DNA from: Patescibacteria group bacterium
Lineage (GTDB): Bacteria > Patescibacteriota > Saccharimonadia > Saccharimonadales > JAZKJC01
Assembly: GCA_040384565.1 (NCBI GenBank)
Contig: JAZKJC010000023.1
Location: forward strand, 1,481 to 65,480
Direction: 5' to 3'
Length of the DNA: 64,000 nucleotides
Position 1 is the first letter of the stretch. Every line of letters starts with the position of its first letter. The notes under the pieces are model-generated. The model ran no database searches. It worked only from the letters and a program-made list of their open reading frames with translations, and had not been told where the DNA came from. Made by a program: the position numbers and the translations under genes. Of this stretch, positions 46,600-64,000 are shown one piece after another.

Positions 46600-46737
46600 C
46601 TAAGCTGAAAGCTTGCTGCGGCCTTTGAGACGGCGACGCTTAAGTACAGCTTGGCCGGCTTTACTAGCCATTCGCTTCATGAATCCATGTTCACGAGCCC
46701 GGCGACGGGTTTTGGGTTGAAATGTTCGCTTTGGCAT
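46600..46737 (-). CDS. rpmH: 50S ribosomal protein L34
   Basis: Not in the ORF track (45 aa). My translation is [45 protein letters not shown]; canonical position upstream of rnpA. Confidence 0.9.
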
Positions 46738-48479: not shown

Positions 48480-48801
48480 AAAAGCAGCGAGCAATGAGCA
48501 GCGAGCAATGAGCAGCGAAAATACTTTAATGGCGCTTATTTTGGTTTTTGGTGTTTGTGCAGATCGTGTTCACATTGTTGGTAAAGCATTTGTACAAACT
48601 GTGTACATCTGCAGTGGTTATGCTCAGGTAGTTTTTGCAACAAAGGTATTGTGTACAAAGCCGGGCATTGTGCGCAGCTTGTCCGAGCGGCTAGCACAGG
48701 CTTTTACACACGTAAATTTGGCATTTAACAGGTTTGTGTTGGTAGTTATACACATTGTCCCCAGCCCTAATAATGATTACTACAAAGGAGTTTAATATAT
48801 T
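48480..48801. promoter_or_regulatory. dnaA-dnaN spacer, candidate oriC module
   Basis: TTATACACA at 48746-48754 and TTTTACACA at 48702-48710. TGTGTACAA at 48650-48658 is the reverse complement of TTGTACACA. An AT-rich tract precedes dnaN. Tandem AGCAGCGAGCAATG x2 lies at 48484-48511. Confidence 0.6.
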
Positions 48802-49893
48802 ATGAAATTACAGGTCACCCAGGAAAATCTCCACAAAGCACTTAGTAGTGTTGGCCGAGTTGCAAGTGGTAAGGGTACTTTACCGATTCTATCCAACCTT
48901 TTAATTAAAACTATCGGCAATCGACTAAGTGTCGCAGCCACAAATCTAGACATAGCAATTACTCATTTTATTGGTTCTAAGGTTAGTGATGAGGGGGCAA
49001 TCACAGTGCCAGCAAGGCTCATGGTTGATTTTGTTGCTAGCCTGCCCTCTGGGACAATTACGCTCGAACTTGATGAGACTAAATTAAAAATCACAACCGA
49101 CCAGTACGAATCAATTATTAACGGCACCAACGCGGAAGAATATCCGGTGATGCCAACAATTGCTGACGGCACCAACTGGACTGTACCGTCAAATGTGCTT
49201 AGAGCTGGGCTACAACAAGGCTTAATAGCAGCTTCGTCGGACGAGAGCCGACCAGTATTAACAGGCGTATACATGCACACACACGATAAAAAGCTTTTTC
49301 TTGTAGCTACTGACAGCTATCGATTAGCAGAAAAAACCCTTATGAAAGCCTCGGAAGATGTAAATTTATTGATTCCAGCCGGTGCATTACAGGATTTGCT
49401 AAGAATACTTACGGATGTTGAAGATGAGGTTCAGGTTACCCATAACGATCAACAAGTACTTTTTCGGGTTGGTGATGTTGAACTTGTAGCCAGGTTAATT
49501 GAGGGGAACTACCCTGATTATCGTAAGCTTATCCCAAAAACATTTGCCCATAACGCAATCCTAAAAAAGCAAGAATTTATGAACATCACAAAGGTTTCTA
49601 GCTTGTTTGCACGTGAGAGCGCTGGTAGCGTAACAATCCACTTAGACAAAGCAAAGCAGTTGGTTAGTATTAGATCAATTGCCTCGCAACTGGGCGAAAA
49701 CACCGCTTCCGCTAATGCCGTGATAGAGGGAGAGGGCGTAATTACGCTTAATTCACGCTACATCATGGATGCTTTACATGCGCTGAATGGTGACGAAGTA
49801 AAAATAGCCTTTAACGGTAAGCTAGAAGCTTGTCTACTTACCAGCCCCAAACACACAGACTACCTCCATGTAATCATGCCCCTCAAAAGCTAG
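48802..49893 (+). CDS. dnaN: DNA polymerase III beta sliding clamp
   Basis: 363 aa; three-domain clamp pattern (ATDSYRLA, EGNYPDYRKLIP), position after dnaA. Confidence 0.9.
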   Translation: MKLQVTQENLHKALSSVGRVASGKGTLPILSNLLIKTIGNRLSVAATNLDIAITHFIGSKVSDEGAITVPARLMVDFVASLPSGTITLELDETKLKITTDQYESIINGTNAEEYPVMPTIADGTNWTVPSNVLRAGLQQGLIAASSDESRPVLTGVYMHTHDKKLFLVATDSYRLAEKTLMKASEDVNLLIPAGALQDLLRILTDVEDEVQVTHNDQQVLFRVGDVELVARLIEGNYPDYRKLIPKTFAHNAILKKQEFMNITKVSSLFARESAGSVTIHLDKAKQLVSIRSIASQLGENTASANAVIEGEGVITLNSRYIMDALHALNGDEVKIAFNGKLEACLLTSPKHTDYLHVIMPLKS

Positions 49894-49936
49894 CTTTTGA
49901 ATCCGGGTAGTCCAATAGTAGGATAGCCTGATAGTC

Positions 49937-50109
49937 CTTAGAGCCTGACCCATTCCCCCTGTTCAAAGGGAAAACACCAGCAGGCAGGGAGTTTTTAGCG
50001 GTTTTTTGGCTAAAAGCATACCTAAACGGTATGGTTTTAGTTGAAAAAATGGTAAAAAGCCCTGGACCTGGTGTTTTAGCCGGACGGGGGGAATGGGTCA
50101 GGCTCTTAG
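49937..50109. repeat. ORF-less long hairpin element C
   Basis: A 23-nt terminal inverted repeat: CTTAGAGCCTGACCCATTCCCCC (49937-49959) pairs with GGGGGAATGGGTCAGGCTCTTAG (50087-50109), with one mismatch. An internal loop of about 10x9 nt follows. An imperfect inner stem of about 50 bp (AAACACCAG/CTGGTGTTT, GCATACC/GGTATGG) closes on loop TAAAC. Confidence 0.75.
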
Positions 50110-50124
50110 GGGGCGTGAGATAAT

Positions 50125-50475
50125 GTGCGTATGACGATAAAAAAGTTTGAGGATATAATTGCTTGGCAAAAAGTCAGAGAACTTAATAAAGAGTTAAATT
50201 ACTCATTTGTAGATTTGAGAAATTTTACTTTTAAGGATCAAATTCTGCGCGCCGGTCTATCAATTAACAATAATATCGCAGAAGGTTTTGAAAGAAGTGG
50301 GGATAAAGAACTTAAATATTTTCTGCATGTTGCCCGAGGTTCTGCCGCAGAGGTTCGGTCTATGCTTTATATGGCTTTGGATATGAAGTACATAGAAGAA
50401 GCCCGCTTCCAGGAACTTTACGGCCTTACAGTGGAGGTTGGTCGCTTGATTACGGGTTTTATAAAGAAGTTATGA
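50125..50475 (+). CDS. Four-helix-bundle protein (23S rRNA IVS protein / Avd-like family)
   Basis: 116 aa (likely ATG at 50131: MTIKKFEDIIAWQK). Shows the AWQKVRELNKEL, INNNIAEGFERSGDKE and ARGSAAEVRSMLY hallmarks. Confidence 0.85.
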   Translation: MRMTIKKFEDIIAWQKVRELNKELNYSFVDLRNFTFKDQILRAGLSINNNIAEGFERSGDKELKYFLHVARGSAAEVRSMLYMALDMKYIEEARFQELYGLTVEVGRLITGFIKKL

Positions 50476-50514
50476 CAATCCAACTATCCGACAATAAGAC
50501 TATTGGACTAAACC

Positions 50515-51579
50515 GTGATTTCTGATATAAGGTTACGGAACTTCCGTTCATATACGGACACGACCATTGAGTTCGGAATGGGCGTGAATATTATTGTCGG
50601 GCCTAACGCCAGCGGCAAAACAAATTTGCTGGAAGCCATCCTGGTGTTATGTCGAGGCAGTTCCTATCGGGCAAATGACCAAGAGCTTATAGCCCACAAA
50701 CAGGACTGGGGCCGATTAGATGGGCAAAACAATGGCCAACAACGTACCGTAAAATTACTAAAAAAAGGAGAATTAATACAGAAAGAATACCAAGTAGGAG
50801 GCACCACCCTTAAGCGCCTGCCCTTGCAACGTACGGTGCCAGCTGTTGTGTTTGAGCCAAATCATTTGCAGCTATTAACACAGTCACCAGACTTGCGACG
50901 TAATTTTTTAGATGATATTTTAGAACAAACAGTACCAACTTTTGGAGATATCAGGCGGCGCTACAAACGCACCTTGGCCCAACGCAACTCATTGCTAAAA
51001 CAGGAGTTTGCACCCGACCAATTGTTTGTATGGAACGTGCGGCTGAGCGAACTAGGTGACCAAATTGCCGAGCACAGGCTTAACTATATATCTCAACATA
51101 AAGCTGAGCTCACAAAACTCTACAACAAACTTGCCGGAAAAAGATACAAAATAGATATGGTTTATGAAACCAAGCATAATACCGATGCTTATGGCAGCTC
51201 CCTGTTAAAAGCCCTAGAAGCTAGAACTGCGGTCGACCGCGAACGCGGCTTTACAACCGTTGGGCCACACCGAGACGATATGGGCATCATATTAGGAGGC
51301 CACTCGCTGTCATCAGCCGCCTCGCGCGGCGAAACTCGCACAATGTTGTTGGCACTAAAGCTGCTAGAAGTCCGTAGTCTAGAAAAAGCCCGCGGCATTA
51401 AACCCATACTGTTGCTAGATGACGTTTTTAGCGAACTAGACGGCAAACGCCGCCAAGCCCTAACTGCCCATTTGCAAGGCCATCAAGCTTTCATAACCAC
51501 CACCGACGCCGACATAGTAATCCAACACTTCCTAGACAACTGCACCGTCATTCCCACAGTAAAAGAATATAAGACATAA
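50515..51579 (+). CDS. recF: DNA replication and repair protein RecF
   Basis: 354 aa, GTG start; Walker A GPNASGKTNLLEAI, signature SRGETRT, Walker B ILLLDDVFSELD. Confidence 0.9.
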   Translation: MISDIRLRNFRSYTDTTIEFGMGVNIIVGPNASGKTNLLEAILVLCRGSSYRANDQELIAHKQDWGRLDGQNNGQQRTVKLLKKGELIQKEYQVGGTTLKRLPLQRTVPAVVFEPNHLQLLTQSPDLRRNFLDDILEQTVPTFGDIRRRYKRTLAQRNSLLKQEFAPDQLFVWNVRLSELGDQIAEHRLNYISQHKAELTKLYNKLAGKRYKIDMVYETKHNTDAYGSSLLKALEARTAVDRERGFTTVGPHRDDMGIILGGHSLSSAASRGETRTMLLALKLLEVRSLEKARGIKPILLLDDVFSELDGKRRQALTAHLQGHQAFITTTDADIVIQHFLDNCTVIPTVKEYKT

Positions 51580-51629: not shown

Positions 51630-52925
51630 CTAGGTTGTCGGGTTAACTCGATCGTCACTATACCACTTGATAAAAAGCTGGTTTGGGTCAACGCCTTGGC
51701 TTTTAATGAAGTCCAATGCTTTTTGAGCGTTGGCTTTGTAGGGTTCCTGGGTAATATAGATATTATATTGGTTAAGGTTGGGGAAATAAGCAATATAAAA
51801 GCCCTGCCGATAAACAGTTTTCTCATTTGCTAAAAAGTTTATATTGGCTTTTGGTAATGAATCAAATTCTTTTTTATCCCCCGAAGCCAAATAAGCCAAA
51901 TTATTGTTATCAATAAGTAGAAAGCGGTTTTTCTTGGGGGCACCTATTTTAAAAACAAAGCTAGGAGTCGCTGAACTGTCTTTAATGGCAAATTTATGTT
52001 TTTTGTCTTTTATAGCATCAAAGCCGACTATTGCCAGGTTCTCTGCTTCTTGTAATGGTACGTAAAAAGTTGGCTGACTAGTTGACCATATTGGCTGGGC
52101 GATAATCCCTTTGCTTACCAATTTCTTTTTAGCCTTATTTAAATCAAAGTGATATAAATCCTTGCTAGCCCCATCTTCTCCGCCATTTTTAGCATCACTT
52201 TGGCTATATATTATATGTTGCCCATTCTCGGATGCCATAACGCGTTTTGGCATATCGTCTGTTATTTTTTCTGAACTTAGTGCCGGCAATTGTAACCGAT
52301 CCAAATCTAGAGTTTCGCCATTGGGCTTAGCAATAATGAGGGAGGACTGGTTGGCCCAAAGTATGGCAGAGGCAGGCTTTATGCTCCCAACCAGAGCTGG
52401 AGCCGAGCCCAAATCTGCACGGTAGAGGCCTTGTGCGTCATCATTTTCGAACTGTAAGTACATGTACTGTTTGCTGTTTTCCAGCCACACCACATCAGTA
52501 ATATTGTGTTCAATATCGGGGCTACCTACTAGCGATATAACACCAGTTTCAAAATTAGCAAGCCACCAATATTGTGAATCAGGGGCAAGGCCACGCTGAT
52601 TCAACTGAGGCTCCAGCTGGTCAACAGGGCTGTAGCCCGATGCCTTAAATAGTGCGCCTCCAGTTCCCCATTTCACATCGTATACATTAGGTAATGCATA
52701 ATTTGGGGTTAATGATTTTGTTTTATGACTAGAAAGGTCATATTCGGCGAATCCTGAACCTGTGAAATACTTAATGGAGCTCTCATTAACACGGGGGAAC
52801 TGGATATTGGCAGCAAATGCATCAGATATAAATAACTGACCATTTTGACTAGGCCACAACGCCACAACAATGAGTAATAATATAATAATTATTGCAGCCA
52901 AGATTAAAATTAAACGCTTATTCAT
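51630..52925 (-). CDS. Membrane-anchored extracytoplasmic hypothetical protein
   Basis: 431 aa; N-terminal anchor LILILAAIIIILLLIVVAL; no catalytic motif recognised. Confidence 0.45.
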   Translation of the reverse strand: MNKRLILILAAIIIILLLIVVALWPSQNGQLFISDAFAANIQFPRVNESSIKYFTGSGFAEYDLSSHKTKSLTPNYALPNVYDVKWGTGGALFKASGYSPVDQLEPQLNQRGLAPDSQYWWLANFETGVISLVGSPDIEHNITDVVWLENSKQYMYLQFENDDAQGLYRADLGSAPALVGSIKPASAILWANQSSLIIAKPNGETLDLDRLQLPALSSEKITDDMPKRVMASENGQHIIYSQSDAKNGGEDGASKDLYHFDLNKAKKKLVSKGIIAQPIWSTSQPTFYVPLQEAENLAIVGFDAIKDKKHKFAIKDSSATPSFVFKIGAPKKNRFLLIDNNNLAYLASGDKKEFDSLPKANINFLANEKTVYRQGFYIAYFPNLNQYNIYITQEPYKANAQKALDFIKSQGVDPNQLFIKWYSDDRVNPTT

Positions 52926-52958
52926 CCGGGTATCTCCTATTATAGTAGTCGAGTTTCA

Positions 52959-54245
52959 TTATTGGTTAACCGCTAGATGAATATGGTCTTCGTGACCGCC
53001 CAGACAGTTCCTTGCACCATCCTTACCATCTATAGTTATTTTGTCGAATGTAAAGGCTTTGCCGTTATCCAGAGTGGTAGTGCCGGCAGGTGGGTATGCG
53101 TAAATTAACTCGTTTACTTTCAAAACAGCGCGGTTTTCATACAAAAACTTAAAAAGCTTGTCTTGCTCAGGGCCTTTGCATGCACCAGCTACTAAGTCAG
53201 CCCCAAGGCCCTGTTCATGGAAAGTCCCCGGGTAATGATCACACTTAAGCGCCGTGGTAGTGACCTTTATTTTGGCTTGTTCTACAATTGCCACCAAAGC
53301 TAAAATGGTAGAGCTTTTGACAGCCCCGCTTTGTATTTCAATGCGTTGGCAAGCAGCCCCAAGTACCAATAAGGGATTGTTTAGAAGCCTTGTCCTGAGC
53401 TCTTGGTCAGTCCCTGTCGGTAGGGTTGCGTTGGTAGTAGTTCCCCCCCCTGGGCAGTTGGGTGTGCTTTCACTAACCGTGCCGGCAGCGTTGGTGGGGC
53501 CAGGCACTGCATTTTGGTCCGGAGCCCAGGAATATTGCAAGTCATCCCCACTGCCATCAGACATTCTTTGTGTAGCGCCAATGGCCTGGAATGCAACTGG
53601 TGGTAGTCCCGCAACCCTTCCGCGATAATTGGGTGGTGTTCCGTCTTGCGGGTTGGTCCAGCCTTGCTTTGGTGAATTATTAGAGCTTCTATCAACTCCG
53701 GTCCAAGGCGCAGGTCCTGATTCCATTACGACTGTAATAATACTTTTACCCGTGCGAGGGTTGGTTACAAGTACTCGCGGCGCTTTAGAATAAAAATCTG
53801 CACTTTCAGGCCCTTTTGCCGAAGTCCCATTCCAGTTCCAGACTGCATACCGCCAGCGCATCGTTATGTAAAAATCCCGAAATTCTTGGCCAAGCTTGGC
53901 GTTGTTAGCAAACGTTACCTTGCCTCCTGTGCTAAGTACCCGTCCTTCGGCATCAATAACTTCCTCTAGACCTACCCCTCCATTAGTTGCTGGTAGATTG
54001 TGGCCCTCGATTGAGCCTCCCCCAACTGTCGCCCCAGTTGCTGCAGCTTCCCCACAACCGGTACTTTCTTGGACATCAAAGTAACGAATATTAGATTCAA
54101 AAGCACGCCGCTGTTCGTCGGATAGTTGAGCTGATACAATAATTGGCTTAAATACCCCAATACCTAAAGACAAAATTATTAAAATCGGAAACAGCACCCT
54201 TATTTTTGATGATTCACTTCCTCTAAGCTGGAATAATTTCTTCAT
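52959..54245 (-). CDS. Secreted protein with C-terminal LAS/M15-like (VanY-type) metallopeptidase motifs
   Basis: 428 aa; signal anchor. The C-terminal TFHEQGLGADL and GGHEDHIHLAV fit SxHxxGxAxD ... HxH zinc ligands. Confidence 0.5.
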   Translation of the reverse strand: MKKLFQLRGSESSKIRVLFPILIILSLGIGVFKPIIVSAQLSDEQRRAFESNIRYFDVQESTGCGEAAATGATVGGGSIEGHNLPATNGGVGLEEVIDAEGRVLSTGGKVTFANNAKLGQEFRDFYITMRWRYAVWNWNGTSAKGPESADFYSKAPRVLVTNPRTGKSIITVVMESGPAPWTGVDRSSNNSPKQGWTNPQDGTPPNYRGRVAGLPPVAFQAIGATQRMSDGSGDDLQYSWAPDQNAVPGPTNAAGTVSESTPNCPGGGTTTNATLPTGTDQELRTRLLNNPLLVLGAACQRIEIQSGAVKSSTILALVAIVEQAKIKVTTTALKCDHYPGTFHEQGLGADLVAGACKGPEQDKLFKFLYENRAVLKVNELIYAYPPAGTTTLDNGKAFTFDKITIDGKDGARNCLGGHEDHIHLAVNQ

Positions 54246-54249
54246 ATGC

Positions 54250-57129
54250 TTATTGGCTTACCGTAAAGTCAAAGTGATGATGGTTAGTTTCAGAGTTTTT
54301 CTTGCCGCCATATTTAGTTGCAATTGGTATTATGATGCTTAATGGGCCGGATTGAAGATCAAGGTCTACAGCCATTCCTATGTAATGCTTGGAGCCATCG
54401 GTGTGGCACTTATCAGTAAGGGCATTTACCATGATGTTTGTTTGTTGTCCAGCATCGACCAAAAACTGCAGGATTTTGGGATTAACTTCAGTTGTTTTGT
54501 TGGTAGCGTTTGCGCATGTAGTATAGGCAGGCTTGCCTTCAGATAATGCCACTATCACATCGCGAGTATTGACACCCTTGTTGGTCCAGTAGGTCACCCT
54601 AGGGTTCGTTAATAATTGTTTGGCCAATTCTTGTACGTTTCCCGCAGGCTGCGTTGGTGGGATTGTGGGTGTGCTGGAGGTCTGGCCACCACCATTCGCG
54701 CCTACGCCAATTTCTTCACAGGCCTCATTATCGCCCTCATAACAGGCAGCTGTTATGTGTGTCATTAGATCACCCACATAAAAACGATAACGCACAAATG
54801 TTGGATCGGTGCTTCTGCATTCAGCGTAATCAGGGGCTTCTGCAATTTTCTTCATATTAACTAACTGGCTTAGTTGGAATTTTTCCTGATCATCAAATTT
54901 TAGACCAAAACACTTTTCGCTGTACTTATTGTGCAATTCAGGAATTTGGGCGTCAATAATGCTTGCGTTTACATAAGGATTGGAGAATGATTCGTCGGTA
55001 TCTGCCCTTTCAAGTTCGGAAGGCCGATAGGCAAATTTAGGTAGCCCATAGTCGTAATTTTGGGGTTGTTGAGCTAAAGCCCTGGCACCAAACAGTTTGG
55101 TAAGCGAGCCAAAGGCAGCCGGGATGTCGACCAATCTTGCCATTGTTTTTGTCGGGTTGGATATATTTATTCGCGCCAAACCGCTCATTAATGAGTCGGT
55201 ATTTGCTAGTGAAAAGTAACGTTCAGTCCAAGGAGCTTCATCGGCGTAATGTTTATGTTCAGCCTCGGTCTGGGACCGTAATACAGTTCTTTCACCCTCG
55301 GATAATGGGGTAGCTGCCATAGTTAAAAACTGTTGGTCTGCTAGGAAAAAAGCGCCTTGATTTGACACTGAGCCCAAGGTAGCACCAGCCAAGTCTTCAC
55401 TTATCTCCTCACCTGCTACGTATTTTGCCAAGTCGTTTAGCAGTGGCCCAGCCGCCATGCTAGCCCCAAAGCCGACTACGGCCGATGCAGGAGCCAAAAA
55501 TAAATCAATTCCGAAAGTAAAAGCCATTCCTATAGGGCTATTTACGACCCCGCAGCCTTTCGAAAGCAGCCATTGCCCCGTTTCTGGGGTATCCTCCTGG
55601 AGTTGGGTAAGTATGTTATTAGAGCCACCTAGCTTTGCGGAATTAGGTGTATCTGGCCCAATCGGGTTTTGACCGAGCTCTGTTTGTATGCTTCTAGCTT
55701 CAAAAAACGAACTGGGTTCAGTTGTTGGATCATTGTCGTTAGATTCATCATACATTTGGTCAGATTCAAAGCCTACTTGCACTGCCTGTAGCTCGCTTTT
55801 ATCAGTACTTTGCAGTTGGCCGCCAAGCCCAAGCTGGTACCCTCCAACCCTCTCAGAGGGTTGGACTACATTTTGATATTCGGCGTCGCTAGCAACTGTA
55901 GCGAGTGTGTAAACCATGCAAATTAAGCCCGTAACCATATTTACCGCACCTGCAGTCGCTAGTCCGCTCCTTACATTCGTTTTGACGCTTTCTACTCTGG
56001 GCCGGCCTGTTAAATCCGGGTCAACATTACCAGCGCCGTCTACCGTGCCCGCAGCATCAGCCCCAGGGTTGGGTTTCGGGTTGCCGTTTTCGTCTGTTGC
56101 ATTGGGGCTGCCCCGGATTCGTATTCGTTCATCACCGCTAATTATTGACCGTTTACGTTCTTTCCAGCGCGTATAGGCGTCACCTGTATTTCTTACAAGT
56201 TTTTCGTCAATTTTTTTTATAGGGTGGAACATAGAAGGACTAATACGGTTAGCAACAAGCCTAGTCTGAATAAACGAACCAAATCCTGTTAACCCCAATG
56301 ATCCACGCGTCCTATCAAATAAAGCCCTGGTTTGACGTGCATTAAAATTCTCTGGAACATCAATCTCTACCAACTTATTGGTGGCATCAACCGCACCGCG
56401 AACGTTGAAGTCCTGGCGTAATTTGGCTAGATCATCAGCCGGAAACTTGGTTGTATCAACGCGTATTTTCTTCATAAAACCCCTACCATCAAACTCCAAT
56501 TCCATACCAGCTTTGGCATATCTGGTTTCAATTTTATCGGCCAGATTATTGCCTATACGGCTCAAACGGCGATTTTGCGGTTTATCCTGCCATTTGTAGT
56601 AGCGGTATATCCTAGCGGTTCGACCTTCAATATATGATTCAACAGCCCCAAAATGGAACTTTTGTAACATCTGAGCCGCATGAATTAACTTCAGCGGTCC
56701 CATAACAATTAACGCTACAAAGAAAGCAACAGCAACAATAACGCTAGAAATACTACTCAGGATAAAAATTTTTTTGGCCCTACTAAGATCGCCATACTTG
56801 GCCCTTAGGCCCTTTTTAGCAAGTTGAGTTGCTAATGATAGGGCCAATGGGGATAATCCACCACCGGTATAGCCATTGCCTAGTTGATCTCCTTCTCGTT
56901 GAGCTGCGGCTGTCCCAGAATAGGAATCTGCCGATTGCTCGGCATTTTGCAATTGGCTGGCATCTAGCTCATTGTTCTGGCTATTTGGCCCGGGAGATGG
57001 TCGATTGTAGGCATTTTCTAGATTTGCAATTTCAGCTTGTCTATCCGCCGGGTTAACCCCTAGGTCATCGTGCTGGCCGTTATTTCCGGCTGATCTTTCT
57101 TTTTCGTCATAGTATACGGGTACAGGCAC
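54250..57129 (-). CDS. Large polytopic membrane protein of the T4SS-like cluster with C-terminal LAS/M15-like domain
   Basis: 959 aa; disordered Q/N-rich N-terminus and several TM segments. The C-terminal SKHYIGMAVDL ... ETNHHHFDF resembles the C-terminus of 52959-54245. A VirB6-like role is a guess. Confidence 0.45.
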   Translation of the reverse strand: MPVPVYYDEKERSAGNNGQHDDLGVNPADRQAEIANLENAYNRPSPGPNSQNNELDASQLQNAEQSADSYSGTAAAQREGDQLGNGYTGGGLSPLALSLATQLAKKGLRAKYGDLSRAKKIFILSSISSVIVAVAFFVALIVMGPLKLIHAAQMLQKFHFGAVESYIEGRTARIYRYYKWQDKPQNRRLSRIGNNLADKIETRYAKAGMELEFDGRGFMKKIRVDTTKFPADDLAKLRQDFNVRGAVDATNKLVEIDVPENFNARQTRALFDRTRGSLGLTGFGSFIQTRLVANRISPSMFHPIKKIDEKLVRNTGDAYTRWKERKRSIISGDERIRIRGSPNATDENGNPKPNPGADAAGTVDGAGNVDPDLTGRPRVESVKTNVRSGLATAGAVNMVTGLICMVYTLATVASDAEYQNVVQPSERVGGYQLGLGGQLQSTDKSELQAVQVGFESDQMYDESNDNDPTTEPSSFFEARSIQTELGQNPIGPDTPNSAKLGGSNNILTQLQEDTPETGQWLLSKGCGVVNSPIGMAFTFGIDLFLAPASAVVGFGASMAAGPLLNDLAKYVAGEEISEDLAGATLGSVSNQGAFFLADQQFLTMAATPLSEGERTVLRSQTEAEHKHYADEAPWTERYFSLANTDSLMSGLARINISNPTKTMARLVDIPAAFGSLTKLFGARALAQQPQNYDYGLPKFAYRPSELERADTDESFSNPYVNASIIDAQIPELHNKYSEKCFGLKFDDQEKFQLSQLVNMKKIAEAPDYAECRSTDPTFVRYRFYVGDLMTHITAACYEGDNEACEEIGVGANGGGQTSSTPTIPPTQPAGNVQELAKQLLTNPRVTYWTNKGVNTRDVIVALSEGKPAYTTCANATNKTTEVNPKILQFLVDAGQQTNIMVNALTDKCHTDGSKHYIGMAVDLDLQSGPLSIIIPIATKYGGKKNSETNHHHFDFTVSQ

Positions 57130-57147
57130 TTTATTTCCTCTTTGTGA

Positions 57148-59067
57148 TTATGCGCCGGGGTACAGACGATTCTGTAGGTCTATCGTTCCCTGCGGTTGGT
57201 TGAATTCACCAGATTGCTCCATGGCCTTAATTTGGTCCGGATTGGTGGTAATAAGTCCCGCCTCTGTTGGGCTGGCTGTTATCTGTATATGCACATGGTT
57301 TTGCCCGGCAAAGAACAGCCCCTGGCCTACCGGGAATTGGCTCAGCCGCTTCTTTTCCTCGCTAGTGAGCTTGAAAGTATCTGCCAAAACATCTACGGCT
57401 GAGGGAGATTGTTTAAGCAAAATTTGCATGCTTGCGTTAGCTACAATTGCCCGGCCCATGCGTGAACCCATAAAGTCTTCAACATCTTGTGTGATGGTGG
57501 TAATGCCAAGGTTATATTTACGAGCCCGCTTAGCCAAAGAAAATAAGAAATTAGCCGAATCCTCATATTTCATCAGCTGCCAGGCTTCGTCGACTATTAA
57601 GATGCGTTTTTTCTGGTCAGATTTAGTCTTATTCCAGATAAAATTCAACACTATATACATTGCTACGGGCCGCAGTTCATCCTCCAGGTCGCGAATATTA
57701 AACACCACCAACGGATTGTTGATGTCTATATTGCTTTGCTGGCTAAAGATGCCCGCGAATGTTCCAGTAGTGTATTTGCGCAGCCTTTGAGCCAACTGTG
57801 GGCCTGTGCCACCCATATGAAGCAGCGTATCGTACAAGTCCGCGATGGTAGGTGGCTGAGAATTGTGTGTTAGTGGGTCATTAGTAATGCCGGCTTTGGC
57901 GTAAGTTTCAATTAATGAAGCATCAAGGTCAGCCTCTTCTGTTGGTGTTAGGGCTGGCGCAATCATGCTGGCGCCGCCTGTTTGGCTAGCAGCCATTTGG
58001 GCTTGAGCACCACCCATCATTAGCCTAAGCAGCCCATGCAAAGTAATTAAGTTGCTTCTTAGCGCATTGTCAGCCTCCTCAGTATCAACTACCTTGGGTA
58101 GTTCAAAGGGGTTAATGCGCACCGTTGAGTTTAGGCTTAAGCGCACATAGGCGCCACCAACGGCTTCAGCCATACGTTCGTACTCATTCTCCGGATCAAT
58201 AATAAAAATTTCTGTGCCGTACATCATGCTGCGGATGGCCTCCAGCTTAACAGTAAAGCTCTTTCCCGCGCCAGACTTGGCAAACACTACTGAATTGCCG
58301 TTTTCCAGAGAAAACCGGTCAAATATAACTAGTCCGGAATTGTGCATATTGATTCCATAGAGAATACCGTTATCTTGTGTCAAATCGGCGCTGGTAAATG
58401 GAAATGTCGTGCTGAGAGCGCCGGTGCTAAAGTTACGCTTAATCTGCAACTGATCACTAAACTGTGGAATCGTGCTGTTGAAGCCCTGCTCCTGCTGGCT
58501 GGTTGCCGGCTTAGAGTAAACCAGTTGCTGGCCCAACACTGACTCCACTTTATGAGCCACAAATTCCAGCTCGTCCATTGAAGAAGCATAGATGGTAAAG
58601 TAAATGCTAAACCGGAAAAATCTTTCCTCACCCACTTGCAACTTGTCGCGCATTTCTTCGGCGTCAATAATAGCCGCTTGTTTGCCGGGGTCACGTACTC
58701 GGCCTTTCTCTGAATCTATCTGAATTCCGGCTTCTATTTGGCTCACTTTTTTGCGCAGATTTTCCAGAACAACCTGGCTTTCCACCGGGTAAACATACAT
58801 CGATAGATCAATAACTTCGTCCAGATTAACGATGCTGGATAGCCAACCCGTAAAGACCTGATGAGGAAAACCAAAAATATAGTACGTCCGGGCAATCCTG
58901 GTACCAATCTGGAAGTGGCTGGCAGAATATTCCAAGGAACTTGGCGCGATAAAATCACGCAGCGCTGTAATGCCCTTTTGGAAAGCAATCTGCACCTCCT
59001 GTTGCTCACGCATCTGCTGCTGCTGTGCCAAACTAACCGGATCCAAAGGTTGCTTACGCTTGCTCAT
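57148..59067 (-). CDS. VirB4/TrbE-family type IV secretion ATPase
   Basis: 639 aa; Walker A FAKSGAGKSFTVK, Walker B ILIVDEAWQLM. The N-terminal domain pattern is RTYYIFGFPHQVFTGWL. Confidence 0.75.
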   Translation of the reverse strand: MSKRKQPLDPVSLAQQQQMREQQEVQIAFQKGITALRDFIAPSSLEYSASHFQIGTRIARTYYIFGFPHQVFTGWLSSIVNLDEVIDLSMYVYPVESQVVLENLRKKVSQIEAGIQIDSEKGRVRDPGKQAAIIDAEEMRDKLQVGEERFFRFSIYFTIYASSMDELEFVAHKVESVLGQQLVYSKPATSQQEQGFNSTIPQFSDQLQIKRNFSTGALSTTFPFTSADLTQDNGILYGINMHNSGLVIFDRFSLENGNSVVFAKSGAGKSFTVKLEAIRSMMYGTEIFIIDPENEYERMAEAVGGAYVRLSLNSTVRINPFELPKVVDTEEADNALRSNLITLHGLLRLMMGGAQAQMAASQTGGASMIAPALTPTEEADLDASLIETYAKAGITNDPLTHNSQPPTIADLYDTLLHMGGTGPQLAQRLRKYTTGTFAGIFSQQSNIDINNPLVVFNIRDLEDELRPVAMYIVLNFIWNKTKSDQKKRILIVDEAWQLMKYEDSANFLFSLAKRARKYNLGITTITQDVEDFMGSRMGRAIVANASMQILLKQSPSAVDVLADTFKLTSEEKKRLSQFPVGQGLFFAGQNHVHIQITASPTEAGLITTNPDQIKAMEQSGEFNQPQGTIDLQNRLYPGA

Positions 59068-59086
59068 TGGTTAACCCCAATGAGTT

Positions 59087-59150
59087 CAAATCCGAAATCT
59101 GAAATCAGAAAACCGAAACAAATCCGAAATCTGAAATCAGAAAACCGAAA
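59087..59150. repeat. 2 x 32-bp tandem repeat (3' flank of cassette)
   Basis: CAAATCCGAAATCTGAAATCAGAAAACCGAAA occurs twice in perfect tandem. Confidence 0.9.
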
Positions 59151-59152
59151 CA

Positions 59153-59554
59153 TTACGCCGTGCTCCTAAGGATGGCGCCAAGAATTTTCATGATTTCAGT
59201 AGCTTCATTCAAGAGCTTCTGTTGAGCGGCTATGAACTCCGGTGGAGCAACCATAACTTCCAGCCACCAAATTGTTTCCCTAGCTTCTTTCTTTGCGATT
59301 TTTATACGCATAGCAAAGTCTTTCTTGCTAAGTGATTCATTAGCCTCAAGATAATTCGCGCCAACAGAACCCGAAGAACGAACCACTTGTTTCCCATCTT
59401 CTATGAATGCTGTTGTCTTAGGCAGCTTACTCACAAAAGAACGAACATCACGCGCAAATAATAACGCACGATCCTCCAGGTCAAACCGTTTCTGATTTCG
59501 TGCTTCGAGTTTCGTATTTGTTTCTGATTTCGTGCTTCGAGTTTCGTATTTCAT
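59153..59554 (-). CDS. Four-helix-bundle protein (23S rRNA IVS protein / Avd-like family)
   Basis: 133 aa; FDLEDRALLFARDV, SSGSVGANYLEANESLSKKDF, KKEARETIWWLEV. The first 22 aa are encoded by flank repeats. The start overlaps the upstream stop as TAATG. Confidence 0.85.
   Translation of the reverse strand: MKYETRSTKSETNTKLEARNQKRFDLEDRALLFARDVRSFVSKLPKTTAFIEDGKQVVRSSGSVGANYLEANESLSKKDFAMRIKIAKKEARETIWWLEVMVAPPEFIAAQQKLLNEATEIMKILGAILRSTA
59488..59551. repeat. 2 x 32-bp tandem repeat (5' flank of cassette, inside its N-terminal codons)
   Basis: GTTTCTGATTTCGTGCTTCGAGTTTCGTATTT occurs twice. It is an imperfect inverted counterpart of 59087-59150, sharing TTTCTGATTTC / GAAATCAGAAA. Confidence 0.9.
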
Positions 59555-60516
59555 TATTGTAGTTCTTTCTCAAGGTTTGGCTGGCGAGCCATACCTTGTC
59601 CCTTTTCTATGACAGGGGCTGATAAATCCGCGAAATTTTTGAGTGGTTGCCGTGTGGCTGTATCTGGGTTATAAGTATCATAATAAAGCTCAATCAACTC
59701 CTGGGTATCCAAGGGCAATCCCTGGATACTGCACTGTTGCAGCCCGCCCAATACGGCCTGTACTCGGTTACGTAATTCATCCTTGGCTTTATTCAAATCC
59801 GCCTCATGAATAGTGACATGTTGCTGCTTATTATTAAGCAAACCCTTAAGCCCGCTAAAAAAGTTTTTGCTTTGTGTCAGGGCTTTAGTGAGATCCGCTA
59901 TCGGGAAATACGGCACCACCACATAAAACTTCTTGTCCATGATGTTGGTTTGCTGTGACAAATCACTAATAAAGCCAATGTAATCCTCCATCAGCAACGA
60001 TAAAAGCATGTTGTCATGTTCTGAGCGGATTTTATCTAAACGGTCAATATAGGGGCGTAAATCTACTTTTTGCGAACGGACAAAAATTTGTACTGGGAAG
60101 TAAAGCGAGTTCAAAAAGCCCTGATAACTATACTCTACGGCTTCGCGTTCCTGTGGACTCATCAGATCAAAATTAATAGATTTAACCATAATCACAGATC
60201 TGAAACTGCCATCATTCATAATGACTATGCCGTCCCTTATCTCGGCGATTTGCAAGGTGTTCTGGGTACTGTTTGGGTTTGATTTGATTGGGGCTACAGC
60301 TGGAGCCAAGCCTTGCATGCCAACAGGCATAGCCGGTTGCATTGGCGTCCCTAGGCTATAACCCTGAGGTTGTTGATAGGCTGGTGGATAGGCTTGAGCT
60401 TGGCCAACTGGGCTTGGCGGTGGCGGTCCATAGGCAGCGTAAGGGTCTGTCGCGACAGGCTGGGGTGCCTGAGCTCCCATCTGCGGGTTATTCTGCGCTT
60501 GTGTATTTGGATCCAT
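59554..60516 (-). CDS. T4SS-cluster protein: Pro/Gln-rich N-terminus plus a domain resembling VirB4 N-terminal regions, no ATPase motifs
   Basis: 320 aa. RSVIMVKSINFDLMSPQEREAVEYSYQGFLNSLYFPVQIFVRSQKVDLRPYI is reminiscent of VirB4-type N-domains. This assignment is tentative. Confidence 0.4.
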   Translation of the reverse strand: MDPNTQAQNNPQMGAQAPQPVATDPYAAYGPPPPSPVGQAQAYPPAYQQPQGYSLGTPMQPAMPVGMQGLAPAVAPIKSNPNSTQNTLQIAEIRDGIVIMNDGSFRSVIMVKSINFDLMSPQEREAVEYSYQGFLNSLYFPVQIFVRSQKVDLRPYIDRLDKIRSEHDNMLLSLLMEDYIGFISDLSQQTNIMDKKFYVVVPYFPIADLTKALTQSKNFFSGLKGLLNNKQQHVTIHEADLNKAKDELRNRVQAVLGGLQQCSIQGLPLDTQELIELYYDTYNPDTATRQPLKNFADLSAPVIEKGQGMARQPNLEKELQ

Positions 60517-60838
60517 CTTTATTCTTTTCCCACCTAAGAAAGTTATAATTACATCTTATTATATCAAGACAGTGAGTTAAGTGCACAGAATAGCCCATTT
60601 ATTAATTTTCAATTTTCAATTTTTCAATTTTCAATCAAGGATCAATGACTCAAATAATCCAAAAATTCGACCTGGAGGAACGGACGGCTCGTTTCGGGGA
60701 AGACGTCATTAAACTTTGTCGAACCATTAAGCAAGATGCTATTACCCGTAGTTTGGTTGATCAAGTCATACGATCGGCGACAAGTATAGGAGCTAACTAT
60801 ATGGAAGCCAATGGCGCGAGTTCTAAAAAGGATTTTCG

Positions 60839-61932
60839 AGGTTATAGGAACTTTCGTGGAGGTTTTGGCTCCTCCGTTCGGCTGTAAAGATACCACTCAA
60901 CCAGCCGTCTTTGGTGTTCTTCGCTCATGCCCCGATGTAGCTTGAGCTTGGTTCTGAGCTGGGAGTTAATACCACCCTCTACATAGTTAGTAGTTCTGGG
61001 GATTGGTTCGGTAGTTAGCGCAGTATCCAGGTAAGTGAATAATTGGTTAGTTTGCACTAGTTTCTCCAGTTGTTTGTAGGCTGAGCGTAAGCCCCTATGG
61101 GTATACCACCAGCGTCTATGACCGCTGGTTGGACTGGCAAAGTAGGTTCGCTCCCGGATGAAGCTACCGTATTGTTCCTGCCATGCCTGGAGACGTTGTT
61201 GCCACTCCAGCGATTGTTGGCTGGTCTTGACCTGCCACAAATCTCTGGTGAGTTGGAGTAGCTCCTGTCCAGCAATGGTTTGCGGATGGAGCGTGAGCTT
61301 AACCCGGATGTTCTGCCAGACATGAAACACACAACGCTGAATCCTGGTCTTTGGCCAGCACCGAACAATAGCCAGCAGGACACCTTTCTGGCCATCACAA
61401 ACGATCACTAAGGGAGCTGGCAGCCTCCCAAGCAGCAGCGACCAGGTATTCCCAGATTCCCAACCGACCCACTGCCAGGCGATAACAGCAGTTGGGGTGC
61501 GGGCTATGAGGCAGACCATACTACCAACTCGGATACCGTCAATGAGGATGATGGGGTATAGCTCACCCGTAACCTCAGGCTTTGGAGCAATCTCCCAGCA
61601 CCAGGCTGTCTGAGACCGCCAGGCGCGGTCAGTTACGCCATGGCCGAGTTCGGTCTGCGATTGTTTACCTAGCAACCAGGATACGAAGCGTTCTAGTACA
61701 AATGCCTGGCTTAAGTCAGCTCGTGGCTTGGTAGCACTGCTGGTGCAGCGCGGGCAATACCATCGTTGAGTGCCAGCAGCCGTTAAGCCACGTTTTTGTA
61801 GTTTCTTGCTGCACGTGGGACAGGCATACTTATAGGCTCTTTTTTCATACCATTAATGTCTCACGACATTAATTAAACACAAATAACAGAGGGGAATTGG
61901 TTAAAAAACCTCCACGAAATTTCCGATTAGCC
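60839..61932 (-). mobile_element. IS element (IS256/Mutator-like transposase) with 8-bp target duplication
   Basis: 1094 bp. Direct repeat GATTTTCG lies at 60831-60838 and 61933-61940. The terminal inverted repeats of about 28 bp are imperfect (..GGAACTTTCGTGGAGGTTTT / AAAACCTCCACGAAATTTCC..). Confidence 0.8.
60842..61848 (-). CDS. DDE transposase (IS256/Mutator-like), N-terminal Zn-ribbon out of frame at an A6 run
   Basis: The main ORF carries VCDGQKGVLLAIVRCWPKTRIQRCVFHVWQN and TTNYVEGGINSQLR. Upstream, the same frame encodes YACPTCSKKL...WYCPRCT. The only ATG (61848) is one frame off, across AAAAAAG (61840-61845). Confidence 0.65.
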
Positions 61933-62167
61933 GATTTTCGTAACAAAGCACATATCTGCAAAAAAGAAGCTCAGGAAACCCAGCACTGGCTCCGTATGCT
62001 AAGTGCCGCTGTACCAGAACATAAAGACGCATTACGCGTCCTGTGGCAAGAGGACCATGAATTCGTACTAATCTTCCAGAAAATAATTTCGAGTTTGAAA
62101 CAATGAAAAATGGTATTTGAATGAAAATTGATAATTGTAAATTGGAAATTCCTTTGCGCTAACTCAC

Positions 62168-62191
62168 AAGCTAATAGCTGATGGCGTATAG
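62168..62191 (+). repeat. Cassette-flank word, copy 1 (AAGCTAATAGCTGATGGCGTATAG)
   Basis: Direct repeat of 62896-62926 (AAGCTAATAGCTTGTAGCTGATGGCTTATAG). The pair brackets the PIN/RHH module. Confidence 0.7.
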
Positions 62192-62197
62192 TTCTAA

Positions 62198-62611
62198 TTA
62201 GGCCTGGTTGGGGGCTACAGTTTGCAGTAGCGGGACATGATTGAAGTGCCTATCGTTGGTTGCCAAAGTGCAAGTGTATTGTAGGCTCAAGGTTGCGATC
62301 CAGAGGTCATTCGTAGGTATTGGAGTACCCTTAAGAGCCAATTCTGCCCAAAGTCGGGCGTATATTTCTAACGTTTCATGGTTTGGGAATAGAACGGTTA
62401 CTCTTTCTGAAGCTAGAAAAGCATCTAGTTTCGCATAATTTTTAGTCATACGATTGCCTTTTTGAAAGCCAGCCCTTAGCTCGGCTACCACAATAAAAGG
62501 CATCAATATCTCACAACCACCAACCACCATTTCTTTAAGTTTGGTTGCTTTGCCCTCTATGAATTTATCGTATGAGTTAGTGTCAATGCTAACTCTTAAA
62601 TCGTTGGCCAT
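62198..62611 (-). CDS. PIN-domain toxin (VapC-like)
   Basis: 137 aa; SIDTNSY, VVAELRAG, TNDLWIA, LATNDRHF acidic/PIN motifs; overlaps the antitoxin gene. Confidence 0.8.
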   Translation of the reverse strand: MANDLRVSIDTNSYDKFIEGKATKLKEMVVGGCEILMPFIVVAELRAGFQKGNRMTKNYAKLDAFLASERVTVLFPNHETLEIYARLWAELALKGTPIPTNDLWIATLSLQYTCTLATNDRHFNHVPLLQTVAPNQA

Positions 62612-62853
62612 AGCTCTTTGTCAATCTTGTGTTGGGCATCGAACGCCTTTCGTTCCTCGGTGCCAATACCGCCACTGCCATAAAACCAATCAAGGTCGTT
62701 ATAAGTCTTGTTTTTTTCTGCTTGGCCTGTGGCCTGCTGTAGCACTTCCACTATTGTCGCGTTAAAGCTTTGCCCCTGTTTCCGGGCACGCCGGCGCAAA
62801 ACCTTATCAACGGGCTCCGGAATATTACGAATGGTATATTGTATACTACTCAT
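62596..62853 (-). CDS. Ribbon-helix-helix antitoxin (VapB/FitA-like)
   Basis: The likely start is MSSIQYTIRNIPEPVDKVLRRRARKQGQSFNATIVEVL (the track ORF extends to 62892). The beta-strand plus two helices pattern fits RHH. Confidence 0.65.
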   Translation of the reverse strand: MSSIQYTIRNIPEPVDKVLRRRARKQGQSFNATIVEVLQQATGQAEKNKTYNDLDWFYGSGGIGTEERKAFDAQHKIDKELWPTI

Positions 62854-62895
62854 GTAGGCAGTATACATAATATGTATGCATAAGTCAAGCAAAAG

Positions 62896-62926
62896 AAGCT
62901 AATAGCTTGTAGCTGATGGCTTATAG
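62896..62926 (+). repeat. Cassette-flank word, copy 2
   Basis: See 62168-62191. It is followed by a 17-codon four-helix-bundle gene stub. Confidence 0.7.
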
Positions 62927-63045: not shown

Positions 63046-63423
63046 GTGCGGTACAATTGGCTTATGAAAGGACACTCATTTCGGGATATTATTGCGTGGC
63101 AAAAAGCGCATAGCCTTTGTGTCGATATTTATAAAATTTTAGCCAGTAATAAAGATTTTTCTTACAGGGATCAAATACAGCGTGCGGCTGTATCCATAAT
63201 GAATAATATTGCCGAAGGACATTCCAGAAGGAGCGACAAATCGTTCCGAAACCTTCTGCTCATAGCTAAGGGTTCGGCCGCAGAAGTTGAATCTATGCTT
63301 GAACTTGGGAAAAGCTTGGGGTACTTCACCTCAATTCAACACGAAGACCTCACCCAAAGAGTTGACGAAATTTCTCGTCTAATAACTGGCCTGGTTAAAT
63401 TCCTAGAAACCCGCCAGCCCTAG
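63046..63423 (+). CDS. Four-helix-bundle protein (23S rRNA IVS protein / Avd-like family)
   Basis: 125 aa; FRDIIAWQKAHSL, IMNNIAEGHSRRSDKSF, AKGSAAEVESML. Flanked by TGAGAGGTGAG (63009-63019) and CTCATCTCTCA (63442-63452). Confidence 0.85.
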   Translation: MRYNWLMKGHSFRDIIAWQKAHSLCVDIYKILASNKDFSYRDQIQRAAVSIMNNIAEGHSRRSDKSFRNLLLIAKGSAAEVESMLELGKSLGYFTSIQHEDLTQRVDEISRLITGLVKFLETRQP

Positions 63424-63457: not shown

Positions 63458-63973
63458 CTATCGGAGCGATATAACTACTTCGTCATCCGGGGGTTTTTTG
63501 TTGTTTCGTTCCGCTTCTCTGGCTATCGTTGACACGTTCAGATCATCCCTGGCTGCTAGGCTCAGTAGAGCTGGGTCTACCGGTTTAGTGGCCTCAGCTG
63601 GTGGTTGGTGTTTGTCTGCTGAGCTTTTAGGCTTATGTTTTTTGTTTTGCCCGGTGTCTCGAGTCTTGCTGCCGTGTGGATCAACTACCCGCATGTGGCC
63701 GTAGGCAGGGTTCGGTCGCGCTTTGTCTTTATGTATTTGCTCCAAAAGTGCCTCTTCGGCTGCTCCTGTGTCTTGGGGGATGGTAGCAGGAGTTGTACCT
63801 GGCAGTACTGTCTGGGATTGCGAGAAAGTCGCATAACCTGGGGGGGTCAGTGCAGGGTCTGGTTGGTTCATGAACCAGTAATCGTCTTGAGGGGCTTGCG
63901 ATTGCTGCCCGCCGCTGCCCTGTGCCGCCGCGACAGCCGACTGGCGGTGCGCCTGCTCCGCCTGATTAATCAT
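63458..63973 (-). CDS. Low-complexity (Pro/Gln/Lys-rich) hypothetical protein
   Basis: 171 aa, predicted disordered; same strand as the T4SS-like genes; weak coding evidence. Confidence 0.35.
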   Translation of the reverse strand: MINQAEQAHRQSAVAAAQGSGGQQSQAPQDDYWFMNQPDPALTPPGYATFSQSQTVLPGTTPATIPQDTGAAEEALLEQIHKDKARPNPAYGHMRVVDPHGSKTRDTGQNKKHKPKSSADKHQPPAEATKPVDPALLSLAARDDLNVSTIAREAERNNKKPPDDEVVISLR

Positions 63974-64000
63974 TGTGTCTAGGTGTTGGGCAGTAGGGTT

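Follow-up and report, generated by a model that had tools for sequence, protein, structure and literature searches.

The window analysed here is a stretch of 64,000 nucleotides from a Saccharimonadales genome (assembly GCA_040384565.1, contig JAZKJC010000023.1, positions 1,481 to 65,480). Next to its dnaA-dnaN-recF genes it carries a cluster of minus-strand genes for a type IV secretion system (T4SS) with a VirB4-type ATPase, which is the subject of this text. A previous interpretation made from the letters alone, referred to below as the sequence-only reading, had described five genes starting 50 bp after recF. The spacing was confirmed (recF ends at 51579 and the next stop codon begins at 51630) and the listed open reading frames (ORFs) were found where they had been placed, but the co-oriented ORFs between 51630 and 60516 number six, because a gene for a four-helix-bundle protein of 133 aa is situated between trsD and virB4. 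Counted from recF they encode p431, p428, p959, VirB4, the four-helix-bundle protein and a TrsD-like protein (Table 1). Moreover, the cluster does not end at 60516 as had been assumed, since it is extended by a PrgI-like gene that starts at 63458 and runs beyond 64000. The window carries the distal half of the operon, i.e. a partial PrgI, the TrsD-like protein, VirB4 and three extracytoplasmic or membrane proteins. Promoter and terminator scans of the window remained at chance level.

Table 1. Positions of the T4SS cluster, the insertions and the origin neighbourhood in the window.
Feature	Position	Strand	Assignment or basis
p431	51630-52925	-	predicted membrane anchor, beta-propeller of the TolB-like (PD40) type; gene 3 of the variable module
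p428	52959-54245	-	predicted signal peptide, double-psi beta-barrel, Gly/Thr linker, LAS/M15-like C-domain
p959	54250-57129	-	three predicted hydrophobic helices, LAS/M15-like C-domain
VirB4-type T4SS ATPase, 639 aa	57148-59067	-	NF045971, PDB 4ag5, Pfam
Four-helix-bundle ("23S rRNA IVP") gene, 133 aa	59153-59554	-	PF05635, TIGR02436
TrsD-like protein, 320 aa	59554-60516	-	NCBIfam TrsD 1.9e-6
PrgI-family (VirB3-like) gene, C-terminal half, cut by the window end	63458-64000	-	tblastn
Four-helix-bundle gene split by the insertion sequence	halves 60660-60836, 61933-62094	+	split tblastn
IS1249/IS256-family insertion sequence	60844-61927	none	23-nt terminal inverted repeats; NF033544 IS1249 8.6e-94
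FitA-like RHH antitoxin and PIN toxin pair	genes 62198-62892; with repeats 62169-62926	-	Pfam PIN, FitA-like_RHH
Four-helix-bundle (23S rRNA IVP) gene between prgI and trsD	63046-63423	+	PF05635 1.2e-32
yidC	45155-46078	-	part of origin neighbourhood
rnpA	46071-46475	-	part of origin neighbourhood
rpmH	46600-46737	-	part of origin neighbourhood
rpmH-dnaA spacer, probable oriC region	46738-47108 (371 bp)	none	between rpmH and dnaA
dnaA	47109-48479	+	Pfam
dnaN	48802-49893	+	Pfam
Four-helix-bundle gene between dnaN and recF	50125-50475	+	Pfam
recF	50515-51579	+	Pfam

Proteins of the VirB4 cluster

The identification of VirB4 by the sequence-only reading could be verified by several independent matches. 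The protein reaches 354.7 bits against the NCBIfam model NF045971 ("VirB4-like conjugal transfer ATPase, CD1110 family"; curated cutoff 325), its residues 228-607 match the solved VirB4 C-terminal domain (PDB 4ag5) at 8.9e-48, Pfam returns P-loop_TraG, AAA_10 and DUF87, and the translation contains a Walker A (AKSGAGKS, residues 263-270) as well as a Walker B motif (LIVDEAW). However, only positions 182-732 of the 752 of NF045971 are covered, so the canonical N-terminal domain is not part of the same polypeptide. These N-terminal model positions are matched by the neighbouring protein of 320 aa (NF045975 98-255, NF045971 2-104), which had been noticed for its Pro/Gln-rich composition. The composition holds for its N-terminus, and the protein can now be identified as a separately encoded TrsD-type homologue of the VirB4 N-domain, the orthologues of which bear PF26593 TraC-like. 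Such separately encoded domains have been described for Patescibacteria and also for the pGO1 type (Quinonero-Coronel et al., 2025, PMC12102498).

The truncated gene at the window end was detected using PrgI from a related locus (L001) as tblastn query, residues 189-361 of which align to 64000-63461 and run off the window. An independent Logan contig of 6.8 kb (L085), which encodes an identical TrsD and repeats the intervening genes of the window between prgI and trsD, contains the full PrgI gene (369 aa, PF12666 at 8.3e-12). Upstream of prgI, L085 (3-1723) encodes a 451-aa protein without family match and a fragment with a Peptidase_S74 (endosialidase chaperone) domain. In L001 the cluster includes a TrbL_3 (VirB6-like) gene and an array of VirB2-like pilins. 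Pfam scans of all window ORFs of at least 250 aa found neither a type IV coupling protein (T4CP) nor a relaxase, as had been claimed for VirD4-like and relaxase genes, and all Walker-A ORFs in the window are explained as ABC, AAA_14, DnaA, RecF, VirB4 or hydrolase proteins.

The first gene downstream of virB4 encodes p959, which had been called polytopic. It is indeed predicted to be a membrane protein, but hydropathy points to only three, conserved hydrophobic helices (123-141, 388-413 and 536-554) behind a low-complexity cytoplasmic N-terminus. A VirB6-type polytopic channel was considered and rejected, because three hydrophobic segments instead of at least five are present and no VirB6/TrbL/PrgH model matched; furthermore, the TrbL_3 protein is encoded in relatives by a gene separate from the one at the p959 position. 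Searches with the p959 body (about 700 residues, profile of 17 sequences) revealed nothing meaningful in PDB or NCBIfam and no Pfam match. At about residues 830-959 a LAS/M15-like domain follows, in which the residues H915, D922, H950 and H952 vary neither among four homologues nor within the three-member family of this C-domain. The three closest homologues of p959, which are all the named ones from a word-indexed search, bear a classical VanY domain at this position.

The second protein, p428, has a signal-peptide-like N-terminus without obvious anchor. Hence, the proposal of two anchored extracytoplasmic proteins applies to p431, which has one strong hydrophobic segment (residues 5-23), and not obviously to p428. 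Residues 72-255 of p428 (window 53490-54030) were modelled by AlphaFold2 (AF2) with a predicted local distance difference test (pLDDT) value near 97, and the top Foldseek matches of this model are all double-psi beta-barrel (DPBB) proteins, namely kiwellin (2e-4), PA4485, p97-N and loosenin. The TM-scores are modest (TMt 0.39-0.61) and Pfam gives no DPBB match, which limits the assignment to the level of the fold. We conclude from the model that p428 has a confidently modelled DPBB domain of the RlpA/expansin/kiwellin-like type, which is new here. The domain is found with 40-73% identity in 105 database proteins, where it is fused to M23, VanY, Amidase_2, CHAP, C39-like, NlpC/P60, phage lysozyme, glucosaminidase, SLT or GDSL domains. 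Two of the 105 proteins are C40 peptidases from Nakamurella, a member of the Actinobacteria, to which the hosts of cultivated Saccharibacteria belong.

Separated from the DPBB by a Gly/Thr linker, p428 ends in a C-domain at about residues 280-428. The sequence-only reading had assigned related domains with SxHxxGxAxD...HxH motifs of the VanY/LAS type to the ends of p959 and p428. Their relationship was confirmed at profile level (p959c against p428c family: 93.3%, E 2.7e-7), and both show the signature H-x6-D...H-x-H, invariant in homologues. The p428c family is small with an invariant H...D...H-x-x-H-x-H; H342, D349 and H420 of p428 are invariant in a mixed seven-sequence alignment (A3) of the p428 C-domain family with the p959 C-domain, and H417 and H422 within the p428c family. 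As profile, A3 matches PDB 9flh (8.5e-5), the Sonic hedgehog N-domain (0.007-0.02) and VanY (0.07); a literature search on PDB 9flh found nothing. With hhalign, the p428c family could be aligned to Pfam-verified VanY domains (82.5%, E 9.8e-6), whereas the p959c family reaches 9.7% directly and is connected to VanY only through the p428c family. Thus, the window domains share with the LAS metallopeptidases (M15 VanY/VanX, Hedgehog N-domain fold) the signature and weak Hedgehog/VanY/Peptidase_M15_3 profile matches but, unlike them, stay below all curated thresholds. Likely, p959 and p428 carry two related LAS/M15-like domains, with weak profile evidence behind the M15/LAS assignment as such.

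For p431, an exhaustive search gave at least 150 cluster representatives, most of them 410-500 aa long and, among the best 150, at most 37% identical. The family profile matches beta-propellers of S9 peptidases and TolB at 4e-7 to 3e-4 (S9 4.2e-7, TolB 8.1e-7), and one family member matches Pfam PD40. On this profile evidence we assign p431 as a TolB-like beta-propeller with an N-terminal anchor, which is also new here.

A conserved motor and a variable module in Saccharimonadia

A scan of one genome per GTDB species resulted in 80 Saccharimonadia loci, which together with L001 make 81 related loci. Synteny was counted on the 67 loci with enough flank, in 55 of which dnaA is in range. VirB4 is 80-92% identical across all 81 loci, and trsD (69-88% identical in 79 loci) is located directly upstream of virB4 wherever it was detected (79/79). 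Downstream of virB4, at a distance of 4.6-8.5 kb, recF follows on the opposite strand and convergent in 67/67 loci, and dnaA lies beyond recF in 55/55. The order prgI-trsD-virB4-variable genes, converging on recF-dnaN-dnaA, is fixed in all 67 species. The comparison with Saccharibacteria T4SS loci, which the sequence-only reading had recommended, thus gave the same position and orientation throughout, and the published order of strain ML1 matches as well (see below). The median identities to the window proteins in the 67 species are 84% for VirB4, 76% for TrsD, 75% for DnaA, 67% for DnaN and 54% for RecF; since VirB4 ranks above DnaA, DnaN and RecF, as TrsD does, the ATPase is more constrained than the adjoining replication proteins.

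The genes between virB4 and recF behave differently from this motor. Using tblastn, p959 was detected in 20 of the 67 loci (median 25% identity), p428 in five and p431 in two; in about 30 of the 67 species, the first gene downstream of virB4 is homologous to the p959 body at 22-27% identity. Even L001, with VirB4, DnaA and RecF 92%, 87% and 71% identical to those of the window, has positional equivalents without BLASTP similarity to p428 and p431, and its p959 equivalent resembles p959 only over 38 residues at the N-terminus and in one further, weak stretch. Nevertheless, the architecture of the module is kept: there is always a protein of about 800-1700 aa, followed in most loci by a protein of 300-1000 aa and one or two smaller ones. 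At position 1, corresponding to p959, Pfam scans of 47 species found VanY in 13, Exo_endo_phos in four and GDSL in two, and alginate lyase, CHAP, Amidase_2, GDPD and Amidase_5 in one species each. At position 2, corresponding to p428, the domains among 67 scanned species are Phage_lysozyme2 (35), GDSL (12), CHAP (10), C39-like (8), Amidase_3 (7), M23 (6), SLT (4) and others. It may be mentioned that Exo_endo_phos (4/47), the GDSL lipase, the GDPD phosphodiesterase and the alginate lyase at position 1 are enzymes with non-peptidoglycan substrates.

The similarity of the module genes also does not follow the relationship of the genomes. DnaN identity correlates with the identities of RecF and VirB4 (Spearman rho 0.64 and 0.66, respectively) whereas for the p959 score no correlation was seen (rho 0.15, p = 0.23). 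It is in more distant genomes that the best homologues occur: the closest one to p959 (48% over 813 aa) comes from a genome with DnaA at 76% and RecF at 55%, and the DPBB domain occurs with 73% identity in a genome with DnaA at 51% and VirB4 at 65%. Because even the nearest species share no more than about 75-77% of the virB4 nucleotides with the window, domain shuffling and a patchy distribution can be claimed, recent recombination cannot. These comparisons characterize the three genes downstream of virB4 as a domain-shuffled, phylogenetically discordant module. This finding is new here and was not encountered in the two papers searched for it. It amounts to a family-wide pattern, in which the motor is constant and the envelope-active module attached to it varies; the divergence of the genes downstream of virB4 and the operon orientation relative to the fork are not discussed in the searched text of PMC12102498. 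The 80-species comparison offers a concrete handle on the system, with an ATPase core that exceeds the adjoining replication proteins in conservation and wall-active proteins behind it that are reshuffled.

Relation to known systems and possible functions

Apart from the saccharibacterial T4SS, no such system is known on which the survival of its bearer depends, and the substrate of this T4SS is unknown (PMC12857230, PMC11665869); its function was called "completely unknown", with effector delivery or the uptake of host material as proposals (PMC11665869). The closest known counterpart of our locus is that of Southlakia epibionticum ML1 (Wang et al., 2023, PMC10633639), where recF is SEML1_0003 and the T4SS genes SEML1_0004 to SEML1_0019 are located on the strand opposite to dnaA-dnaN-recF. 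There, SEML1_0004 encodes 249 aa, SEML1_0005 an exported PEGA protein (211 aa), SEML1_0006 two lysozyme-like domains and a cysteine peptidase, and SEML1_0007, the positional equivalent of p959, a protein of 1113 aa with a "Hedgehog/DD-peptidase" domain at 951-1105, followed by 0008 (VirB4), 0009 (TrsD-like), 0010 (PrgI) and 0011; all of 0004 to 0011 were scored essential at later time points by transposon sequencing (PMC10633639). The window and ML1 thus agree in the order after recF, namely small exported proteins, a multidomain wall hydrolase, a Hedgehog/DD-peptidase protein of roughly 1000 aa, VirB4, TrsD-like and PrgI. They differ at position 2 (DPBB and LAS-like domain in the window, lysozyme-like domains and cysteine peptidase in ML1), at position 3 (one 431-aa beta-propeller instead of the 249-aa and PEGA proteins) and in the extra four-helix-bundle gene in the operon and the insertions between prgI and trsD of the window. 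Furthermore, a requirement of the system for epibiotic growth is known for ML1 only.

A survey of the Patescibacteria T4SS reported MPF_FATA ancestry, association with TrsD, absence of a relaxase, T4CP genes far from virB4 and a location adjoining dnaA, dnaN, rnpA and rpmH, and suggested that VirB1 may be replaced by the homologues of peptidases and lysozymes encoded behind virB4 (Quinonero-Coronel et al., 2025, PMC12102498). The window corresponds to this description in its MPF_FATA-related VirB4, adjacent TrsD, PrgI/VirB3, the lack of a relaxase and of a T4CP near virB4, and the proximity to dnaA/dnaN/rnpA/rpmH; orientation relative to the fork and divergence of the downstream genes, which the searched parts of the survey do not cover, are documented here for Saccharimonadia. 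The chromosomal T4SS without relaxase or coupling protein beside the origin, as seen by the sequence-only reading, is correct and agrees with both publications (PMC10633639, PMC12102498). Also its suggestion that M15-like domains take over the lytic function of VirB1 is plausible and has already been made in the literature, with SEML1_0007 and SEML1_0006 as the ML1 equivalents. With the Gram-positive systems (pCF10 Prg, pIP501 Tra, pGO1 Trs, ICEBs1, CTn2/CD1110) the locus shares a CD1110-type VirB4, TrsD, PrgI and a multidomain wall hydrolase in the operon. Unlike these conjugative systems, it has no relaxase, T4CP or oriT context and occupies a fixed chromosomal position; their hydrolases bear SLT and CHAP domains in contrast to DPBB and LAS-like ones, and the VirB2-like pilin array of the window's relatives (L001) has no counterpart in them.

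Taken together, the locus is very probably one species' copy of a vertically inherited chromosomal T4SS of Saccharimonadia that was repurposed from monoderm (MPF_FATA-type) conjugation machinery. It is an ordinary member of an already described system and no new kind of system; its local peculiarities are the mobile or cassette insertions inside the operon and the combination of a DPBB with a LAS-like hydrolase. The sequence-only reading had also considered the decayed core of an integrated conjugative element. The conjugative MPF_FATA type of VirB4, the missing relaxase and T4CP and the nearby insertion sequence and toxin-antitoxin pair would fit such a remnant, but we regard it as extremely improbable, because site and orientation on the chromosome are identical in 67/67 species and VirB4, at 80-92% identity, outranks DnaA, DnaN and RecF in conservation. 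In addition, all ORFs are intact, the ML1 orthologues are essential, and the insertion sequence is inside a four-helix-bundle gene and not at the cluster boundary.

In the proposed mechanism, TrsD and VirB4 would energise the assembly of a membrane channel consisting of PrgI and a TrbL/VirB6-like protein, together with a VirB2-like pilus, the latter two being encoded upstream and outside the window. The p959 protein would present its Zn-peptidase-like domain outside the cell via its three membrane helices, p428 would be secreted and contribute a glycan-binding or glycan-cleaving DPBB as well as a second Zn-peptidase-like domain, and p431 would act as anchored beta-propeller. All three may open or organise the peptidoglycan where the apparatus crosses the wall, i.e. 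take the role of VirB1. The transported substrate would be something other than DNA processed by a relaxase; the system may export protein or take up material from the host.

Since the domains of the module change from species to species and the motor hardly changes at all, the module probably acts in part on the envelope of the host cell. A more far-reaching version, which we put forward tentatively, takes the three genes as a replaceable "envelope-breaching" module on a near-invariant motor, whose heads are swapped independently of the species tree, act on the host envelope and determine the host range. The heads would then comprise Zn-peptidases, amidases, muramidases, DPBB, lipases, a phosphodiesterase and nuclease/phosphatase-family domains, and it is conceivable, if speculative, that the DPBB common to p428 and the Nakamurella C40 peptidases represents a host-type wall-targeting domain. 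If the module proteins indeed target the host envelope, they are candidates for setting host specificity in these epibionts. On the other hand, there is a reasonable chance that the three proteins act on the epibiont's own wall only and make a local, VirB1-like gap. In the T4SS operon their genes immediately follow virB4, comparable to PrgK, TraG and CwlT of Gram-positive systems, the role of which is described in PMC12102498, and p959 is embedded in the membrane of its producer. However, from a housekeeping hydrolase directed at the own wall one would expect a constant architecture and agreement with the species tree, which the p959 score does not show (see above), and the domains are swapped among enzyme classes including lipase, GDPD and nuclease/phosphatase families without obvious peptidoglycan substrate.

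Two further explanations appear less probable. A machine for DNA or RNA uptake like ComB of H. pylori, which feeds the nucleotide-auxotrophic epibiont, was raised as an idea in PMC11665869, and T4SS-like tubes at the host interface together with feeding on host RNA are reported from another Patescibacterium (bioRxiv 10.64898/2026.06.21.733656); the Exo_endo_phos domain on the p959-position protein in 4/47 species would agree with it. We nevertheless consider this function unlikely here, since the cluster in the window encodes neither a nuclease nor a DNA-binding domain, the nuclease-family domain of other species occurs rarely and might be that of a phosphatase, and direct evidence does not exist for any species. 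Similarly low is the probability that the head-on placement by oriC was itself selected, be it for gene dosage or because regulation or mutagenesis of the variable module would be coupled to replication. All of the 67 species share the orientation, the variable genes are those closest to recF, and gene dosage was proposed in PMC12102498, the searched text of which does not discuss orientation. But the invariance may simply mean that a single ancestral arrangement was passed on vertically, overlapping rounds of replication may not occur in Patescibacteria, and the fork direction is deduced from gene order with weak GC skew.

It must be mentioned that several points weigh against the interpretation of the locus as a wall-opening T4SS. 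The expected VirB6-like and VirB2-like genes upstream fall outside the window, and in L085 the 451-aa gene upstream of prgI is unrelated to the TrbL_3/VirB6-like gene that relatives have there, the contig ending before VirB6-like and pilin genes would come into view. The C-domains of p959 and p428 reach no Pfam M15/VanY threshold and were both modelled with pLDDT below 50; the p959 model, built from a four-sequence alignment, is unusable as a whole (pLDDT 31.6), and the p959c profile alone finds nothing in PDB. The insertions, which place prgI and trsD 2.9 kb apart, could affect expression. Finally, every functional statement on the locus is carried over from a different species or inferred.

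Insertions and the origin neighbourhood

As noted by the sequence-only reading, the segment is interspersed with cassettes, an insertion sequence and a toxin-antitoxin pair, which was confirmed by Pfam, NCBIfam and repeat analysis. They account for unusual spacing: the prgI-trsD gap amounts to 2944 bp in the window compared to 31-832 bp in 72 other loci, and the trsD-virB4 gap to 489 bp compared to 477 bp in the distant species L029 and at most 190 bp in all others. In L029 the same trsD-virB4 slot is occupied by an orthologue of the 133-aa four-helix-bundle protein (IVP133) with 74% identity. The start codon of the IVP133 gene overlaps the trsD stop codon, and on either side of the gene there is an exact tandem duplication of 32 nt (59087-59150 and 59488-59551), the two being in opposite orientation. 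In the predicted RNA fold these flanks pair as a long stem (z = -3.74), and 0/100 shuffles fold as well. Inverted repeats of 28 nt were also observed at the ORF boundaries of another such gene, IVP116 (49908-50510), and of the gene at 7742-8104 (region 7730-8141). Such repeats around four-helix-bundle genes resemble the stem of rRNA intervening sequences, yet the genes are placed here inside protein-coding operons (dnaN-recF and trsD-virB4).

The terminal inverted repeats of the insertion sequence are 91% complementary, and its transposase is frameshifted near the zinc-finger N-terminus. Its position within a four-helix-bundle gene is found in the independent contig L085 as well and is therefore not an artefact of binning or assembly. 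The ribbon-helix-helix (RHH)/PIN pair is flanked by 23-nt direct repeats (62169-62191 and 62904-62926; 87% identical, 735 bp apart), which suggests a cassette-like insertion. The four-helix-bundle gene closest to prgI has a family member at the same position and in the same orientation in L001.

The location of the cluster directly beside the origin was confirmed, with yidC-rnpA-rpmH on the minus and dnaA-dnaN-recF on the plus strand as canonical origin neighbourhood. The rpmH-dnaA spacer is the probable oriC region, judged from the gene order, its AT-richness (GC 30-41% compared to about 45% elsewhere) and two TTTTCCACA DnaA-box-like 9-mers at 46953 and 47048; across the window such 9-mers are not enriched over shuffled sequence. 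The claim that the cluster is transcribed head-on to a rightward fork could be substantiated only in part. Its convergence with recF is constant (67/67 loci), but the fork direction follows mainly from gene order and is weakly supported by GC skew, the check that had been recommended. Left of 46.8 kb, 63% of the genes are on the minus strand and the skew is negative on both strands, whereas the right arm (17 kb) shows almost no skew. When the contributions of side and gene strand were separated by regression, the side effect amounted to +0.030 +/- 0.010, in weak agreement with the proposed direction. The cumulative skew has its minimum at 60.2 kb and not at 46.8 kb, and a shoulder at 44 kb; this is due to the shortness of the right arm, in which the minus-strand cluster predominates.

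Some minor observations concern the same region. An ORF of 107 aa (48472-48795) overlaps the end of dnaA and occupies the space up to dnaN; by tblastn it was matched in no more than three loci, and locus L082 has an ORF of 76 aa in the same place. The left replichore by the origin (window 1-44600) is mostly a locus for surface-polysaccharide biosynthesis, with genes for a Wzm/Wzt-type ABC exporter, several GT4 glycosyltransferases, FkbM methyltransferases, GDP-mannose dehydratases, an O-antigen-ligase-like protein and two FG-GAP repeat proteins of about 750 aa, and it further encodes a 679-aa Amidase_2 protein and a 996-aa GDSL protein.

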